DNA of 58,193 nucleotides from IMG/VR virus record IMGVR_UViG_3300045988_132327, positions 1 to 58,193 of that record. One strand, given 5' to 3'. Of this stretch, positions 4,818 to 37,016 are shown one piece after another; positions within the stretch are counted from its first letter, which is position 1; every line of letters begins with the position of its first letter. The DNA comes from a virus (lineage: Duplodnaviria > Heunggongvirae > Uroviricota > Caudoviricetes). A program made the position numbers and the translations under genes. The notes beneath the pieces were generated by a model. That model ran no database searches. It was given only the letters and a program-made list of their open reading frames with translations, and was not told the origin of the DNA.

Positions 4818-5015
4818 ATGGATAAAAACACCACTGCTTACTGGAATCTGTCACTTGATACCGAATGCCCAAAATGCGGTCACAATTTCGATCTGCTTTG
4901 TGACGCTGATTTCTGGGAGTTTTCTGGAGCTAAACAGGCATGTGAAGAAATAAAAGGTTACGAAACATGCTGTCCAGAATGTAACCATGAATTTAAAACA
5001 GATTTCGTGTATTGA
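4818..5015 (+). CDS. small zinc-ribbon protein (CPKCG...CCPEC)
   Basis: ATG at 4818 preceded by ggag SD; 65 aa. Confidence 0.45.
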   Translation: MDKNTTAYWNLSLDTECPKCGHNFDLLCDADFWEFSGAKQACEEIKGYETCCPECNHEFKTDFVY

Positions 5016-5025
5016 GGCATAACAA

Positions 5026-5658
5026 ATGACCACTATTACCAGAGAACAGGCACAGAAAATTATTGAAGCAGCCGATGAGGTTATTAGTGCGCTTGCCGGA
5101 ACTAACGAGGATGTTCACCCTGGTAGCGATAACATGCTACGCCTGTGGGATGACCTGAATGACCGTTACGCGCCCCCTGAAGTTGTGCGTGAGCTGGCAC
5201 GAATTGCACTGGCATCACTGGAAGCAGAGCCTGTAAGCCAAACTTACAACTTGCCAGAATTAATCGAAGGGATGGAAGTTTCCATTGATGTAAGCACTTG
5301 TGATGCTGATTTAGGTAATCGCTATTTCGGTACCGTCACCGAGGCGTTAGAACTTGATACAGCCAAGAATGGTTACATCCTCCTAGTTCAGGACGCAGAG
5401 CCAAACTTCGATGTAAATGGCAACTCTCCGGTAATTCCGGGCGGTTGGATAAGCTGTAGTGAGCGAATGCCGGATAGCAAAACAGCCGTTCTTGTTGCCA
5501 GGGAGTTTGACAGGAAAGGTGACTGGCGAATGAAATGGGCGACTTACATCCCGGGGCATCCTGACGCTAATGATGGGTGGATCATTCCTGGGGCGTCGTG
5601 GAAACCGTCACACTGGATGCCGCTACCAGAACCGCCGCAGGAGGTTAACCGTGGCTAA
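5026..5658 (+). CDS. DUF551-like phage protein
   Basis: 210 aa; C-terminal Trp-rich motif (PGGWISCSERMPD ... WMPLPEPP) typical of DUF551 as recalled. Confidence 0.5.
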   Translation: MTTITREQAQKIIEAADEVISALAGTNEDVHPGSDNMLRLWDDLNDRYAPPEVVRELARIALASLEAEPVSQTYNLPELIEGMEVSIDVSTCDADLGNRYFGTVTEALELDTAKNGYILLVQDAEPNFDVNGNSPVIPGGWISCSERMPDSKTAVLVAREFDRKGDWRMKWATYIPGHPDANDGWIIPGASWKPSHWMPLPEPPQEVNRG

Positions 5659-8819: not shown

Positions 8820-9209
8820 ATGGGCTTCCCTTCTCCTGCGGCGGATTATGTTGAAAGCCGAATTTCTCTTGATCAGCAACTAATCAGGCATCCATCAGCA
8901 ACCTACTTCATGCGGGCATCTGATAGCCATCACCGTGAGGGAATATTGCAGGGTGCTTTGCTGGTGGTTGATTCCTCGCTTACTCCGGTTGATGGTTCTC
9001 TGCTTGTGTGCGCTATGGAGGGTGAATATCGCATAAAGAGATACAGGAAGTATCCGCGCCAGCACCTGGAGGATTTAAGCACCGGGAGGAAAGAGGCGTT
9101 ACCAGTGGATGACGATGGATGCACGGGGAGTAATGCTGTTTTTGGTGTGATCACTCATGTCATCAATGATGTCCGAAGTGGGGAATTTGATGATTGTCCG
9201 GTGATTTAA
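8820..9209 (+). CDS. humD: HumD, UmuD-like S24 peptidase-family protein
   Basis: 129 aa; LexA/UmuD C-terminal-domain-like sequence; preceded by LexA box. Confidence 0.75.
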   Translation: MGFPSPAADYVESRISLDQQLIRHPSATYFMRASDSHHREGILQGALLVVDSSLTPVDGSLLVCAMEGEYRIKRYRKYPRQHLEDLSTGRKEALPVDDDGCTGSNAVFGVITHVINDVRSGEFDDCPVI

Positions 9210-9281
9210 GCTGCAAAGTGCTGGTGCTTTATACCTGTGAAGTTTATAGTTGTGTACACATAACGAGTACATGAGGTGTTT

Positions 9282-9503
9282 ATGCAATCCATTAACTTCC
9301 GTACCGCGCGCGGCAACCTTTCTGAAGTGCTCAACAATGTTGAAGCCGGGGAAGAGGTTGAAATCACCCGCAGAGGCCGAGAGCCAGCAGTAATTGTCAG
9401 CAAGGCTACTTTTGAAGCCTACAAAAAAGCGGCGCTGGATGCTGAATTTGCATCCCTGTTTGACACCCTGGACTCCACCAACAAGGAACTGGTTAACCGA
9501 TAA
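9282..9503 (+). CDS. phd: Phd antitoxin (prevent-host-death)
   Basis: 73 aa from ATG 9282; sequence matches P1 Phd as recalled. Confidence 0.9.
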
Positions 9504-9883
9504 TGAGGCATATATCACCGGAAGAACTTATTGCGCTTCATGATGCGAATATAAGCCGCTACGGCGGCCTGCCGGGAATGTCAGATCCGGGTAGGGCAGA
9601 GGCCATTATCGGGAGAGTTCAGGCCAGAGTTGCCTACGAAGAGATCACCGACCTTTTCGAAGTCTCCGCCACCTACCTGGTGGCTACGGCGAGAGGGCAT
9701 ATATTCAATGATGCCAATAAGCGTACCGCGCTAAACAGTGCGCTGCTATTTCTACGCCGTAACGGTATACAGGTATATGATTCTCCCGTGCTGGTGGAAC
9801 TTGCGGTGGGGGCCGCAACTGGTGAAATCCCCGTATCTTCAGTAGCGGAAAAACTACGTGAATTATTTGGTTCCAATATTTGA
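9503..9883 (+). CDS. doc: Doc toxin (death-on-curing, Fic-fold kinase)
   Basis: 126 aa; overlaps phd stop by 1 nt (TAATG); matches P1 Doc as recalled. Confidence 0.9.
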
Positions 9884-9912
9884 AAAGAAGCCCGCTCAAC
9901 CAGGCGGGCTTC
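9881..9912 (-). terminator. hairpin terminator between convergent doc and 9967..10767
   Basis: gaagcccgc-loop-gcgggcttc; U-run on minus-strand side. Confidence 0.5.
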
Positions 9913-9966
9913 CTACTATCACTCAATGATTTTTTCTGCTGTCAGCCAGCTAATTCGGTGATGTTT

Positions 9967-10767
9967 TTAGGCGTCAGCATCCTCCGCTACCTCTGCTTCA
10001 ACATCAGCCACGGCTTCATCGGACGGTTCTTCTTTGGCCTGCTCTGCAATCGCCGCACGGCATTTGGCCCTTGCTGTGGCGATTGCTTCAGCACGCACAT
10101 CATCAGGAATCGTTGACGTGATATACATATCCAGTTCTTCGGCGCGGAACACTGTTTGGTCCAGATATTCGCGTAGCATCCAGGTAAATTCGAAATCACA
10201 CGCGATAATCTCTGCGCTACCTTCTGCACCATTTGGGAAATGAATAAAAGCCTGTTTAGCCAAACCGATAACACGACATGCGGTTGCCAAAACAGCGGCA
10301 ACCAGGTTTACATTTTCACACGCTACGGGCTGATTAACGCCGGAGATTACTCCATTTAACTGTCGGTTATATGGAAGGTAGTTTGAGATGCGTTCTACGC
10401 GCCATGTGCCAGTCAGGCTGCCATTCTTAAAGATAATTGGTGTAACGGATAGCCCAAGCTCGCGTATAAGTCGTTGCGCTATAGCAGGATCATTAAACAT
10501 GTCTAATGCTACACATTCGAAAGACTGTGCAAGGGTAAACAGTTCTTCCAGAGAGTAGTCTTTGCCCCTGGCGGTGATGTAACGATGAACGCCGCTTTCT
10601 GCATCACTCCATATAGCTACGCCATGCTCTTCATTCAGCTCTTCATTAAAGCCGAGATACGTCATGATAGTACGTTCAATCGTGTCAAACGGCAGTGACA
10701 TGTCGGCGTTAACAGCCACCAGCAGGCCATTACGCAAGCGGTATTGAATTGCTTTAGTATTTTCCAC
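9967..10767 (-). CDS. hypothetical protein with acidic C-terminal tail
   Basis: 266-aa ORF, last gene of cre-proximal cluster. Confidence 0.45.
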   Translation of the reverse strand: MENTKAIQYRLRNGLLVAVNADMSLPFDTIERTIMTYLGFNEELNEEHGVAIWSDAESGVHRYITARGKDYSLEELFTLAQSFECVALDMFNDPAIAQRLIRELGLSVTPIIFKNGSLTGTWRVERISNYLPYNRQLNGVISGVNQPVACENVNLVAAVLATACRVIGLAKQAFIHFPNGAEGSAEIIACDFEFTWMLREYLDQTVFRAEELDMYITSTIPDDVRAEAIATARAKCRAAIAEQAKEEPSDEAVADVEAEVAEDADA

Positions 10768-10773
10768 GTTAAA

Positions 10774-11436
10774 TCACTCCACTACAAACCAGTCACATGC
10801 CAGTAAGTCGCCTACAGAAGGCAACCACGGAACAACTACACCTTGTGCATTTTTTAAGGCGAAATAAGCACCATACGGAACGAGATCGCCGGGGAAATAT
10901 CCCTTAATGGCTTCCATTCGTGCCGGGTACTGTCCTTCAGGAACCAGCCAGCAGAATTGGTTTTCGCCGTTCCACCCGCGCCGGGCAACTTTCTTGCCAT
11001 CCTTCAGCCACATCAGCGCGTCAGAAAAGTCGGCTGCTTCAAGGTCGATTTCTTCTTGTAGAGTAGCGATACCGCCAGCAGAAATAGTTACGTCCCTGGC
11101 TGTAATGAATGTCACCCCATTGTGACCTTCAATGCTGAGCGATACCCCATTTTCGGAGGCGTCGTTAACCCGGCTATAGCATTTTTCAAATGCTTTCTCT
11201 GGCACATAGACCAGATAGCCATTTTCAGCAGTGACGAGATATCCTCCTATTTGCGGTCGGAATTTTTCCAAGAACACACCATCAACACGAAGCGTCATTC
11301 CTTTTGGCTCAACGACTTCGATACTGCCAAAAATGGGCGCATAAGCTTTGCCGACAATAACAATATCTTTGATTTTCGATGCCCGAATGATGCTGTGGCA
11401 TTTGTATTTGGGGAACACCTGAAAAGTGCTGACCAT
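10774..11436 (-). CDS. DUF2829-like (Tad2-like) domain fusion protein
   Basis: 220 aa; C-terminal ALMWLKDGKKVARRGWNG...W...DW resembles DUF2829 signature as recalled. Confidence 0.45.
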   Translation of the reverse strand: MVSTFQVFPKYKCHSIIRASKIKDIVIVGKAYAPIFGSIEVVEPKGMTLRVDGVFLEKFRPQIGGYLVTAENGYLVYVPEKAFEKCYSRVNDASENGVSLSIEGHNGVTFITARDVTISAGGIATLQEEIDLEAADFSDALMWLKDGKKVARRGWNGENQFCWLVPEGQYPARMEAIKGYFPGDLVPYGAYFALKNAQGVVVPWLPSVGDLLACDWFVVE

Positions 11437-11450
11437 AATCCTTCCTCTAC

Positions 11451-11945
11451 TTAAAACTTTGCGTACTGAAGCGGTGTACGCTTGATTTCAACGCGGTCTT
11501 CCGATGTGCTACCAAAGCCACCAGCGCCTCGCTCTGTTTCATCGAGTTCATCAACTTCTACCAGCGATACCGGTTCAACACGCTCAAAAATGCCTTGCAT
11601 GACCGCCATTCCTGGCTTGAGGCAAACGCCTTCACCACCGGGATCTGTAATCAGTTTTGCCATGATTTCACCGCGATAATCGGAGTCGATAATTCCTACG
11701 CAGTTAGCCAGGCGAGTATGTTTTTTGCAGCCCAATCCGGAACGCGGATAGAGTTTCAGACACCAGCCGGGCGGGATCTCCATAGCCAGTCCGGTGTACA
11801 CCCACCAGCTTGAGGAAATTGCACCATTGCTATCGACACATGGTTTTATTTCAACAGCCTCAAAATCCATCGCCGCCGATCCGGAGGTGGCATAAGCTGG
11901 AAGTTTTGCTGCCGGATGTAGGCGTTTCACTTTTACGTAAATCAT
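11451..11945 (-). CDS. dut: dUTPase
   Basis: 164 aa; PRSGLG and GIIDSDYRGEI trimeric dUTPase motifs. Confidence 0.75.
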   Translation of the reverse strand: MIYVKVKRLHPAAKLPAYATSGSAAMDFEAVEIKPCVDSNGAISSSWWVYTGLAMEIPPGWCLKLYPRSGLGCKKHTRLANCVGIIDSDYRGEIMAKLITDPGGEGVCLKPGMAVMQGIFERVEPVSLVEVDELDETERGAGGFGSTSEDRVEIKRTPLQYAKF

Positions 11946-12418
11946 TGTTTTTTAGCTCTCTGCGTGAAGGTGTAAACCCGACGTTTGATATGTGGAACGG
12001 TAGGAACAGGAATACAGGAACTTTCAATAACTCCTTGCTCCTCCAGCGATCGCACCGCCCGCAAGAACTGCGACGTGTCGCCGCCAAACTGGCGGGCATA
12101 GGTGCTGCCGTTATGAAGTATTTGAGCTATTACCCGAGCTTTTGTCTGGCTGTCACGATATGCGAATAGCCGCACGGCCTCTTCTGGCGCAATCGATAAC
12201 TGATAGCCTTTACCGGCACGGTGTCGAATGAATCCATGCGCCAGTAGGTTTTTGAGTTCGTTACGAGTGCGAACAGATCCGTAATCCAGGAAGTGTGGAT
12301 TGATAACGACTGGCTTAAACCATTCCGTAGGTGCTTTAGCTAATAGAGCTAACAGCTTCCCGGACAATCCTGGATAGGAAGACGGGTAACAATTCAGAGA
12401 TGGGTAATAAGTTTTCAC
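11942..12418 (-). CDS. hypothetical protein
   Basis: 158-aa ORF, start overlaps upstream gene by 4 nt. Confidence 0.4.
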   Translation of the reverse strand: MKTYYPSLNCYPSSYPGLSGKLLALLAKAPTEWFKPVVINPHFLDYGSVRTRNELKNLLAHGFIRHRAGKGYQLSIAPEEAVRLFAYRDSQTKARVIAQILHNGSTYARQFGGDTSQFLRAVRSLEEQGVIESSCIPVPTVPHIKRRVYTFTQRAKKQ

Positions 12419-12771
12419 CGACGCCCCCTTGCCGGATATCGACCTGCATTAGTATCCGGTGCAATAAAGCCGGTAGTGGGGCGAGTGAAAGCGAGATTAA
12501 TCTTCTCGACCATAGTGCGATAATTTTCCTGATAGTGGGCCAGGAGTTTTTCGGCGGCAATGATGGTTACTTTCCGGACGTAGCTTTCTGCTTCCTCCAG
12601 ATTTCGCCAGTTTTTTTCGAGGGTAAACACAGGGACGGCCTCAAGCCCGGTCATGATGCCGAATACAACGACAGCATGACTGTTCTTAACACCAGCGGCG
12701 AAGGTTACGGTGTAACCATCCACCGTGAAGCGTCTTGATTCCGTGATTTGACTCTGCAAAGCACCCTCCAA
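12415..12771 (-). CDS. hypothetical protein
   Basis: 118-aa ORF, first gene downstream of cre. Confidence 0.4.
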   Translation of the reverse strand: MEGALQSQITESRRFTVDGYTVTFAAGVKNSHAVVVFGIMTGLEAVPVFTLEKNWRNLEEAESYVRKVTIIAAEKLLAHYQENYRTMVEKINLAFTRPTTGFIAPDTNAGRYPARGRR

Positions 12772-12816
12772 AATAGGCGAGGGTACTTTACAGCAAAGAT
12801 ATCAATCTAAAAAGAT

Positions 12817-12831
12817 GTGTTAGAAATTTAA
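12817..12831 (+). promoter_or_regulatory. operator-like motif GTGTTAGAAATTTAA
   Basis: member of dispersed 15-bp motif family; between cre stop and 12415..12771. Confidence 0.45.
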
Positions 12832-12832
12832 T

Positions 12833-13861
12833 TTACGAATCCATCAAGCGGCTATTAGCCCCCACAGACACACCGCCACGGCGCAGATACCGCATAAGTG
12901 TTTCCGGTTTCTTCCAGGTTCCTTCCTGCATGATCTCCACCATAGACACCTGCTTTTCAGCCATATCGATAGCGGCCCCGACACGAGCACTATGCCCGGT
13001 CCACGTCCGGTATCTCCCTTTGTTTGGCGCGGCATCCCTTTTATTCAGCAACACCCAGGCGTCGCTGAATATTTTCTCCATTGCAGGTGCAGTAAGGGGA
13101 GTTGTCGTAATCCTGGCTTTATTGCTACGGTGTATCGGCGGGAACAGCACCGCGTCAGGATGTTCACGAAGCCCGGAAACATCCAGCCAGTCATTCAGCA
13201 CTGCGGTAGTGCGACGGGAAAGCACCTTATCAAGCCCGGCGGCGGTCGTTATTGTCTTCGTGTGTGAAATATGTAGCGTGACAGTGTCACCTGTTTGGTC
13301 CAGATCTCCTACACGAATACGCGAGATTTCCGACATACGCATCAGCGTATTGTATGCAACAAAGAGAAAAGCCCGGTTGCGCAGGTCCACCAGCCGTTCT
13401 GACTTGGACAACAGGACGTCGAGCAGTTTCAGATCGTCCCACCGCAGCGGTATAGCCTGGCCTGTTCGTTCGCCTTTTTCAGTTGCCGCTTCGCGCCGGA
13501 TGCGCCGCATAGCCAGAGAAACACTTTTATCATCCGAAAGTGGCGGAAGGCCACAATGCGAAAGCAGCATGTTCAGCATGGCGTAGTGCTTATCAATGGT
13601 GGTCGAAGCCAGATCGGCATCATGCAGCTGAAGAAAATACTCGCGGGCCATTTCTGGTGAGATCGGAAACCAGGCAAGCTGGCGAGCGTGACACCAGCGC
13701 GCCCAGGAATGAAACACCAACCGGAGGTCGCGCAGAGTATTCGGCGCATAAGCCCCCTGGTCATTCATGAACCGCATAAAGTTTTCTGCGGCTTCCTGGT
13801 ACTCTTTGCCAATGTTGCGCAGAAAACCACCGGAACTGCCAGAGATAATTAATTCACTCAT
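12833..13861 (-). CDS. cre: Cre-like tyrosine site-specific recombinase
   Basis: 342 aa; multiple blocks matching P1 Cre as recalled (VSLAMRRIRRE, RNRAFLFVAYNTLMRMSEISRIRVGDL, WTGHSARVGAA, catalytic Tyr in MRYL). Confidence 0.9.
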   Translation of the reverse strand: MSELIISGSSGGFLRNIGKEYQEAAENFMRFMNDQGAYAPNTLRDLRLVFHSWARWCHARQLAWFPISPEMAREYFLQLHDADLASTTIDKHYAMLNMLLSHCGLPPLSDDKSVSLAMRRIRREAATEKGERTGQAIPLRWDDLKLLDVLLSKSERLVDLRNRAFLFVAYNTLMRMSEISRIRVGDLDQTGDTVTLHISHTKTITTAAGLDKVLSRRTTAVLNDWLDVSGLREHPDAVLFPPIHRSNKARITTTPLTAPAMEKIFSDAWVLLNKRDAAPNKGRYRTWTGHSARVGAAIDMAEKQVSMVEIMQEGTWKKPETLMRYLRRGGVSVGANSRLMDS

Positions 13862-14012
13862 GAAACTATTTCACCTCTATATACAGATGACGCTACGCGA
13901 AAAATATAAAAATGACAGGGTAGCTATAAGTTAATTTTCAAAATACAAGCCTTTGATTCGAGGCACGTATTTTCAGTGATGTCAACACTGTTCATCTACA
14001 CATGATTATAGC

Positions 14013-14046
14013 CTAACTTTAAATAATGCCAATTATCTAAAGTTAG
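14013..14046. other. lox-like recombination site CTAACTTTAAATA-ATGCCAAT-TATCTAAAGTTAG (13-8-13)
   Basis: 13-bp inverted arms (12/13 complementary) around an asymmetric 8-bp spacer, same geometry as loxP; about 150 bp upstream of cre. Confidence 0.55.
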
Positions 14047-14053
14047 AAATTTA
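14039..14053 (+). promoter_or_regulatory. operator-like motif AAGTTAGAAATTTAG (weaker copy)
   Basis: overlaps right arm of lox-like site. Confidence 0.35.
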
Positions 14054-14217
14054 GGAATTTTTTTCCTTTCCGCGCAGATGGGCAATGCATTGCTGGTGTG
14101 GGCTTTAAGTTATGCCTGGCAGTTTTTAAGCAGAATTTTCTAAATTGGATGATAAAAAAATGCATCTTGATCCTTTACTCACCCTGTTATTCGGCATAGA
14201 TTTGTCATAGTAATTTT

Positions 14218-14232
14218 ATGTTAGAAAACTAA
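14218..14232 (+). promoter_or_regulatory. operator-like motif ATGTTAGAAAACTAA
   Basis: identical 15-mer also at 866..880 and 24853..24867 (reverse strand); 15 nt upstream of ORF 14247. Confidence 0.5.
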
Positions 14233-14246
14233 ATCGAGTAGGAATA

Positions 14247-15284
14247 ATGAGTAAGAAGTCGATCGAGAAAGAGTACAAACGGTTCCTGCAAACCGCTGAA
14301 CGGTGGAAAGAGCTGGTGGTCGCAAACTCTGTTTTCCATGATACCAGTTATTCCGGCGAGGAATTCCGCCATGTTGCACTAACACATGATCAGAATGTGC
14401 TAGAAGAAGCTGAAAAGTGCCTCACAGAATGGAAAGCCTTTGTTGACTTGTGCCGTAACGCTGACGGCAAAGCGTCTAACATTGTTGAGTCTGTATATTC
14501 TCCGATCCCATTCATTATCGAGGACACAAATCAAAGCACGCATATTGTTGTGCAAAGCGCGACCACCACCCGCTCATTTACGCGCGAAAATCTGCTCAAA
14601 AAATATGATGCAATTATAAAGAAAAGCCTGAAAAACAAGATATTTTCGCAGATTGTTGGTGCACTTGAAGAAGAGCGCCGTTTTTTCGCATCAGAACCTG
14701 AAGGGGAAGTTTACCGGGCGCGCAAAGATGGATACACAGATGTAGTGCTTACAACAAACATTGAAGGCAGCAATGCTCTGTCACGATTCAGGGTAGGCGC
14801 ACACGGAGCCTTAGTGTTCGCAAAACTTCCGAACACCACAGTGCCCGTTGTTAATAATGTCGGCGAACGTCGCAGCATTACTATTTATTCTGGGGTTGAG
14901 TCGATACCTTGCGGCCTGCTTGGTGACTTTAGTCTCTATCGCGTTCGCGATCTGGAGAAACACCAACCAAGCTATGTTGCGAAGTCATACATCTTGCGAA
15001 ACATCGACATCCGCAATGAGAGCTTAAAGAACAAATCAGCCAAAATGCTTGAGGAAGCCGATCCGGCTATTCGCCATATCATTGAGCGTAAAATACAGAC
15101 AGCACGCGAAGCGATGGCGAGACTGAATAAAATGGATCTGGAGTTGTTAGACGTAATGATGACATCCGGAGATGACCTGACAGGCATAAAACTGACAGAC
15201 GCGCGGAAAAGATACGGTAAAACCATAGAAGAACGTTACGGGTTCACTTTCTCCCAAACACAGCACGCCGCTAAACTCTGGTAA
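14247..15284 (+). CDS. hypothetical protein; positional candidate for C1-like immunity repressor
   Basis: 345 aa; convergent with pacB and divergent from cre across an operator-rich spacer; no recognisable domain. Confidence 0.45.
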   Translation: MSKKSIEKEYKRFLQTAERWKELVVANSVFHDTSYSGEEFRHVALTHDQNVLEEAEKCLTEWKAFVDLCRNADGKASNIVESVYSPIPFIIEDTNQSTHIVVQSATTTRSFTRENLLKKYDAIIKKSLKNKIFSQIVGALEEERRFFASEPEGEVYRARKDGYTDVVLTTNIEGSNALSRFRVGAHGALVFAKLPNTTVPVVNNVGERRSITIYSGVESIPCGLLGDFSLYRVRDLEKHQPSYVAKSYILRNIDIRNESLKNKSAKMLEEADPAIRHIIERKIQTAREAMARLNKMDLELLDVMMTSGDDLTGIKLTDARKRYGKTIEERYGFTFSQTQHAAKLW

Positions 15285-35798: not shown

Positions 35799-35813
35799 TT
35801 AATTTTCTAACAC
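35799..35813 (-). promoter_or_regulatory. operator-like motif GTGTTAGAAAATTAA (reverse strand)
   Basis: about 150 nt upstream of 35228..35650 start. Confidence 0.45.
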
Positions 35814-37001: not shown

Positions 37002-37016
37002 ATGTTAGAAATTTAA
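37002..37016 (+). promoter_or_regulatory. operator-like motif ATGTTAGAAATTTAA
   Basis: intergenic between pro-like and RepL-like genes. Confidence 0.45.

Follow-up and report, generated by a model that had tools for sequence, protein, structure and literature searches.

A probable conserved operon downstream of dre in a D6-like phage-plasmid, with one predicted Tad2-type sponge gene and a small variable slot

Published work has established that proteins of the Tad2 family form tetramers and act as sponges for signals derived from TIR enzymes. ModTad2 sequesters histidine-ADP-ribose (His-ADPR; type II Thoeris) and also cyclic UMP and cyclic CMP (cUMP/cCMP; Pycsar), and in HgmTad2 mutation of W21/N22 and of S90/T92/D93 abolishes the binding of glycocyclic ADP-ribose (gcADPR). 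Sequestin (PF21825), a sponge for 3' cyclic ADP-ribose (3'cADPR), was discovered through its fusion to Tad2. Signalling defences of the kinds inhibited by the Tad2 family occur in Escherichia, as type IV Thoeris in E. coli 328, Pycsar in E. coli E831 and CBASS in E. albertii. Among phage-plasmids, Tad2 has already been reported in 93% of D6-type elements and also in P1-type elements (10.1101/2025.09.12.675607, a 2025 preprint). Here we describe the setting of one such gene, annotated as DUF2829 in RefSeq, in a viral sequence of 58,193 nt (IMG/VR record IMGVR_UViG_3300045988_132327, positions 1-58,193, referred to as the window), where it lies in a cluster of five genes at positions 9967-12771 of a D6-like phage-plasmid.

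The element can be identified from the stretch 9400-14300 (4.9 kb), which shares 97% identity with Escherichia phage D6; plasmids of ~90 kb from Shigella and E. coli come closer still, at up to 99.3%. The Cre-like tyrosine recombinase gene upstream of the cluster (12833-13861, minus strand, 342 residues; Pfam Phage_integrase, 4.6e-17; DNA 97% identical to D6 dre), which an earlier note on this sequence had called cre, therefore encodes Dre rather than P1 Cre. The five co-directional genes described downstream of it are all present as minus-strand open reading frames (ORFs) of 118, 158, 164, 220 and 266 residues, and phage D6 has the same five genes in the same order (orf117-orf116-dut (orf115)-orf114 (DUF2829)-orf113, the last annotated there as 'similar to P1 isaA'). 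The first two junctions of the cluster are start/stop overlaps (GTGA and ATGA), the third and fourth are gaps of 14 and 6 nt, each with a Shine-Dalgarno-like sequence, and a terminator scan places a hairpin with a T-run at 9890-9905 (minus strand), between the last gene and the doc gene of a convergent phd-doc pair (9276-9883). Co-transcription of all five is probable, given the translational coupling or near abutment of successive genes and the one terminator-like hairpin, located after the last of them. Taken as a whole, we consider it likely that the cluster is a conserved dre-downstream operon (c8-like, orf116, dut, tad2-like and isaA) with one predicted sponge gene and a small variable slot.

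The 220-residue protein (10774-11436, minus strand) is the only product of the cluster for which a counter-defence mechanism can be assigned, and it is assigned by prediction. Its residues 136-219 match the Pfam family PF11195 'Tad2-like' over profile positions 2-73 of 73 (79.9 bits against a cutoff of 25; E 2.1e-22), which upholds the earlier suggestion that the C-terminal half resembles DUF2829 and Tad2, and gives the cluster, where an anti-defence gene had been thought possible, one secure member of a known anti-defence family. Among proteins of known structure, phmmer ranks ModTad2 first (9eib/8v3e; 7.8e-20), followed by HgmTad2/AcrIIA7 (1.4e-10) and SPO1 Tad2 (1.7e-8). An AlphaFold2 model built with 46 homologues (mean predicted local distance difference test (pLDDT) score 83) consists of a confident beta-barrel (residues 1-90), a low-confidence linker (residues 91-130; 11047-11166; pLDDT ~50) and a confident C-terminal domain (residues 131-220; 10777-11046), which is the predicted sponge. 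The counterparts of HgmTad2 W21/N22/G23 are W155-N156-G157, those of W87/L88 are W204/L205, and S90/T92/D93 align with S207/G209/D210 within a recognizable W-L-x-S-x-x-D motif; W155, W204, S207 and D210 are invariant in the 46 homologues. By homology, this C-terminal domain would assemble into a tetramer that would sequester nucleotide-derived immune signals, with the result that the effector would never be switched on. As candidate ligands we would place His-ADPR or 3'cADPR from TIR/Thoeris systems first, with cUMP/cCMP from Pycsar as a possible second. ModTad2, from a Myroides odoratus prophage, is a single domain of ~89 residues, whereas the window protein has 130 additional N-terminal residues, and the two are only 45% identical, so that the ligand specificity of the window protein may differ; the beta2-beta3 loop has the same length in both. 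Compared with HgmTad2/AcrIIA7 (8kbi) and SPO1 Tad2 (8sme), the window protein is without the long cyclic-dinucleotide-binding insertion of HgmTad2, and residue A78 of the latter is Asn here.

The N-terminal barrel (residues 1-90; 11167-11436) is homologous to the oligonucleotide/oligosaccharide-binding (OB) fold domain of the phage L decoration protein Dec (PDB 6e3c); it belongs to no Pfam family, and its PHROGs, phrog_11049 and phrog_872, are both of unknown function. Dec has in addition a C-terminal trimeric beta-helix spike, which is absent from the window protein. The Tad2 domain is identical at 89 of 90 positions in the window, D6 and the P1-like phage SJ46, whereas the N-terminal domains are 55% identical, or deleted as in D6 orf114 (146 residues). 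This disparity is as expected of a cassette that moves between the D6-like and P1-like groups. About 130 P1-like plasmids share only this gene with the window (10725-11412, ~88% identity), and in P1-like phages such as SJ46 Tad2 and isaA lie together between ssb and hxr. The Dec-like OB fold would, on this reading, be an exchangeable add-on to the sponge domain. The same comparison bears on a different explanation, under which the cluster would be a housekeeping module for replication and nucleotide metabolism and the DUF2829 protein would be inactive as a sponge, either decayed or structural, for instance a Dec-like decoration protein with a passenger domain. We regard this as quite unlikely. 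It would accommodate the metabolic nature of dut, the co-location of isaA with ssb in P1 and the homology of the N-terminal domain to a capsid-binding OB fold, and the shortened or fused forms of related alleles (146 residues in D6; a fusion to dUTPase elsewhere) could mean decay. Against this, the near-identity of the Tad2 domain across D6-like and P1-like elements, with its pocket residues intact, points to selection on that domain; the trimeric spike of Dec is missing, and stand-alone N-terminal domains are found mostly at accessory sites rather than in head modules.

Many phages encode the N-terminal domain as a separate gene of ~90-100 residues. In an IMG/VR sample of 81 ORFs with this domain, skewed by redundancy and by the patterns used for searching, 62 are stand-alone, 17 have other C-terminal parts and two are joined to Tad2. 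The stand-alone homologues (~91-96 residues; for example at 1498-1785, 1483-1758 and 2001-2288 of the related sequences that we label L008, L009 and L096) form a widespread family of small proteins whose carriers are unrelated phages. Most occupy accessory positions, such as behind a Rha-like regulator in phage Bas106 or between Rz and terS in lambdoid contigs; in Ralstonia phage GP4 the gene lies between the portal and major head genes. Given this accessory placement, the 55% identity of the N-terminal domain against 99% for Tad2, and the precedent of Sequestin, likewise discovered through a fusion to Tad2, we raise as a speculative idea, to which we attach a low probability, that the Dec-like domain, perhaps together with IsaA, serves as a module of a new kind in counter-defence or delivery. 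It might be a further unit that binds signals or proteins, or a tag that places the sponge in or on virions, to arrive along with the DNA; the always-adjacent IsaA could share its function. Tad2-Sequestin and Tad2-Acb4 proteins likewise combine Tad2 with a second small module in one polypeptide, the difference being that the partner in the window is N-terminal, is a Dec-like OB barrel and falls in no Pfam family. Our literature search found no description of a Dec-like N-terminal domain, or of modular shuffling, around the Tad2 domain, and the one match to 'decoration protein' concerned an unrelated podovirus; the fusion of a Dec-like N-terminal domain to an almost invariant Tad2 domain is apparently the sole undescribed feature of the locus.

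Two further fusions were seen among relatives. Some D6-like elements have an in-frame dut-Tad2 fusion of 241 residues (L029 3501-4226, P0054; 15 member sequences; six contigs carrying it were read), an odd pairing of a trimeric enzyme with a tetrameric sponge. A Tad2-Sequestin fusion with a Tad2 domain 83% identical to that of the window (L027 and L028, both at 5001-5576; P0064) lies downstream of a Cre-like recombinase gene, in the company of NinX, DUF1281 and a Ref-like RecA-dependent nuclease and followed by HigB/HigA.

The other four genes of the cluster are as follows. The first (12415-12771, minus strand) is the homologue of D6 orf117 (phrog_1968, 7.6e-48) and has a conserved position directly after the recombinase gene. 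The length of 118 residues given for it earlier is right for the ORF; the start of translation, though, is probably a TTG at 12759, behind GGAGG, which would yield the 114 residues annotated in D6. Profile comparison of the orf117 family with P1 C8, which has been linked to the establishment of lysogeny, gives an hhalign probability of 91.7% (E 7.9e-7; 15% identity over 86 columns, from a shallow query profile of six sequences), and comparison with the equivalent ORF of another lineage gives 96.4%, against ~0.1% for controls. The order dre-orf117 also matches cre-c8 of P1. On these grounds the product is a candidate remote homologue of C8. The second gene (11942-12418, minus strand; 158 residues), whose start overlaps the stop of the first, is the homologue of D6 orf116 (phrog_6669, 3.2e-97); its homologues form only eight clusters, all from enterobacterial phage-plasmids, and it has no match in Pfam, NCBIfam or the PDB. 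The third (11451-11945, minus strand; 164 residues) had been called a dUTPase, and the call is borne out: the protein is of the trimeric type (Pfam, 1.3e-13) and scores 118.2 bits with the equivalog NF001862 (cutoff 103) and 116.6 bits with TIGR00576 (cutoff 102.55), with motifs I, II, III and V clear (GSAAMDF, PRSGLG, GIIDSDYRG, RGAGGFGST) and motif IV diverged (AVMQGIF). Such an enzyme would keep dUTP low while the element replicates.

The last gene (9967-10767, minus strand; 266 residues) encodes a homologue of P1 IsaA (47% identity over 262 residues, E 2e-87). Its acidic tail, remarked on before, is real, with 11 Asp or Glu and one Lys or Arg among the final 26 residues. Compared with PDB and BFVD structures, an AlphaFold2 model (pLDDT 83) showed no convincing similarity of fold. 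Searches of Pfam, NCBIfam and PDB sequences, including profile searches and member-by-member Pfam scans at E<=5, returned no match for orf116, orf117 or IsaA, and we found no relationship of orf116 to P1 Ref or Mat, of IsaA to Mat or IsaB, or of the Tad2-like protein to IsaA or IsaB. The idea that P1 IsaB is the remnant of a Tad2 gene split by the insertion sequence (IS) IS1 was tested and rejected. An apparent placement of isaA in the leading region of a conjugative plasmid (L024, with ssb and ddrB-ParB) was likewise set aside, the arrangement being simply P1-like. In the operon reading favoured here, the genes for the C8-like protein, orf116 and IsaA would be backbone genes.

How freely this locus varies can be read from its relatives. 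Among 116 dre-bearing plasmids in PLSDB, 111 hold at least 80% of the five-gene cluster in the same order; judged by this distribution, the cluster is conserved backbone and not a freely replaceable hotspot. Close relatives differ at two points only. The Tad2 gene is absent from S. Typhi pK91-type elements, is reduced to 146 residues by deletion of the N-terminal domain in D6 and encodes 216-233 residues elsewhere, and the isaA-doc junction contains nothing in the window, pdcA in D6, pdcA with a 91-residue ORF in some plasmids, or IS elements in others. In more distant elements of Klebsiella, Raoultella and Enterobacter the frame of recombinase, C8-like protein, orf116 and IsaA is kept, and the orf116-isaA position would be a small insertion slot differing between lineages: it holds dut only (L005, L016 and L023), dut with Tad2 (the window, L021 and L022) or a methyltransferase with Tad2 and an HNH-like protein (L018-L020). 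A further lineage (L027 and L028) has different genes after the recombinase, among them a Ref-like nuclease and the Tad2-Sequestin fusion. The earlier view of the region as a variable hotspot thus survives for the cargo of this one slot in distant relatives, and not for the cluster as a whole, which is largely invariant within the D6 group.

Three side observations concern these variable points. At the isaA-doc junction, 11 of the best 40 plasmid matches have a gene of 364-366 residues (phrog_5902; 2020-3114 in L002, 961-2061 in L006 and 720-1820 in L015) that is absent from the window; its product weakly resembles part of the terminase large subunit and is without a match in Pfam or PADLOC. 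In the window the junction (9884-9966) is without pdcA, and the acidic tail encoded at the 3' end of isaA is longer than that of the D6 copy (protein lengths of 266 and 258 residues). In the Enterobacter hormaechei sequences L018-L020 (3711-6004), a DNA methyltransferase of the N6/N4 type (385 residues) replaces dut, followed by Tad2 (212 residues) and then by a protein of 169 residues with weak similarity to HNH and restriction endonucleases. The methyltransferase and the HNH-like protein could form a restriction-modification pair, with the sponge gene lying between its two members.

The cluster had also been placed in the slot where P1 carries res and mod, with cre said to be followed there by cra, ref and mat. 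P1 has the genes in the order cra, cre, c8, ref, mat, followed by res and mod; cra precedes cre, and c8, ref and mat come after it. P1 itself is without a Tad2 gene and has ssb-isaA-IS1-isaB, with the C1 operator Ossb ahead of it and IS1 beside isaA. In P1-like elements res-mod and isaA-IS1-isaB are two separate variable regions (PMC9603915); the cluster in the window is therefore not in the res-mod slot, and its Tad2 and isaA genes correspond instead to the isaA/IS1 variable region. This bears directly on the proposal that the five genes form a defence island protecting the lysogen against other phages in place of the EcoPI restriction-modification system of P1. Such a role is brought to mind by the position downstream of a cre homologue, with res-mod of P1 lying a few genes further on, by the defence systems that phage-plasmids of the P1 group do carry, and by the possible restriction-modification pair of the Enterobacter relatives. 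However, none of the five proteins matches a defence model of PADLOC-DB 2.0 at E<=0.01, and four of the five have nothing at E<=0.1, the sole listing being a weak CARF match of orf116 (E 0.026, 12 bits); the Pfam search revealed no nuclease, ATPase, TIR or similar effector domain; the one accessory gene that can be classified belongs to an anti-defence family and not to a defence family; and of the D6-like elements screened in the preprint only one had a complete defence system (10.1101/2025.09.12.675607). We hold a defence island to be very improbable.

The opposite extension, in which the entire cluster is a dedicated anti-defence island, with the C8-like protein, orf116 and IsaA as immunity inhibitors and the dUTPase also serving counter-defence, has more in its favour and is still, in our judgement, improbable. 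Anti-defence genes often occur in clusters; in both D6-like and P1-like elements Tad2 always has IsaA beside it, and in P1-like phages IsaA adjoins the dar/ddr anti-restriction genes; the tail of IsaA is acidic; all three proteins of unknown function are confined to phage-plasmids; and the slot, which holds a DNA methyltransferase in Enterobacter, has as its counterpart in another lineage Tad2-Sequestin with a Ref-like nuclease. Yet the genes are backbone across Escherichia, Salmonella, Klebsiella, Raoultella and Enterobacter, unlike the usual variable anti-defence genes, orf117 is probably related to P1 C8 with its link to the establishment of lysogeny, and no similarity of sequence or fold to known inhibitors was found. 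What is left of the candidate defence or anti-defence island of the earlier note is thus one mobile Tad2 gene, and the claim does not extend to the whole cluster.

When this operon would be expressed is suggested by a short motif upstream of it. The sequence AAATTTCTAAC occurs at 12819-12829 (minus strand), between the dre stop codon and the first gene of the cluster, and recurs at 14042-14052, 23450-23460, 23606-23616, 35801-35811 and 37004-37014. These six copies in the window compare with 1.3 expected, all six are intergenic, and the extended consensus is about AAATTAAATTTCTAACAC; a second of the six adjoins the rox-like site described below. Since P1 has dispersed asymmetric C1 operators (Oref after c8 and Ossb before ssb-isaA), we propose by analogy that AAATTTCTAAC is a candidate operator of a C1-like repressor encoded in the window. 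This protein (345 residues; 14247-15284, plus strand), transcribed divergently from dre, has a weak NCBIfam match to P1 repressor C1 (3.8e-5), and homologues in relatives carry the Pfam domain Phage_P7_repressor_C1. From the operator-like motif upstream it is probable that the operon would be turned on when the C1-type repressor is absent, that is, at entry or induction.

Several points weigh against the reading set out above. The T92 contact of HgmTad2 is replaced by glycine (G209) in the predicted pocket. Members of the Tad2 family vary widely in their targets, and the window domain is about equally close (~45% identity) to ModTad2 (His-ADPR, cUMP) and HgmTad2 (gcADPR, dinucleotides), so that the ligand cannot be named from sequence. 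The promoter scan of 9200-14400 gave no convincing sigma-70 promoter next to the AAATTTCTAAC site; the timing of the operon and its control by the repressor are for that reason what we infer. For three of the five genes no function is assigned, and a counter-defence role for the whole cluster is therefore not justified. Lastly, P1 isaA was dispensable for lytic growth in a CRISPR interference essentiality screen, a result that is uninformative on its role (PMC10695390).

The region between dre and the C1-like gene has features of its own. A rox-like recombination site lies upstream of dre at 14013-14046, with inverted arms of 15 nt (93% complementary, one mismatch) that flank the 4-nt spacer GCCA. 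The last letters of the D6 record, TAACTTTAAATAATGC, are annotated as the right half of rox. The only promoter-like site detected in 9200-14400 is a sigma-70-like sequence at 14005-14032 (minus strand; TTGGCA-16-TATAAT, 11/12, by consensus match only), which reads towards dre and the cluster and whose -35 hexamer TTGGCA (14032-14027) lies inside the rox-like site, spanning the spacer into one arm. Between dre and c1 (13800-14400) the G+C content drops to 36-38%, from ~48-50% in the genes on either side.

Given that the presence of Tad2 in these elements was already documented, the gain is modest and consists of the operon anatomy, the C8-like and IsaA identifications and the findings that variation is limited to one small slot and that one near-invariant sponge domain has been recombined with Dec-like barrel, Sequestin and dUTPase partners. 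Early, repressor-controlled expression, if true, would fit a counter-defence gene. Phage-plasmids of the D6 and P1 types are often found in E. coli, Shigella and Salmonella, clinical lineages included. A resident sponge for TIR or cyclic-nucleotide signals, if that is what the Tad2-like protein is, would help to explain how they become established in hosts with Thoeris, Pycsar or CBASS, and could also lower the immunity of those hosts to other phages.

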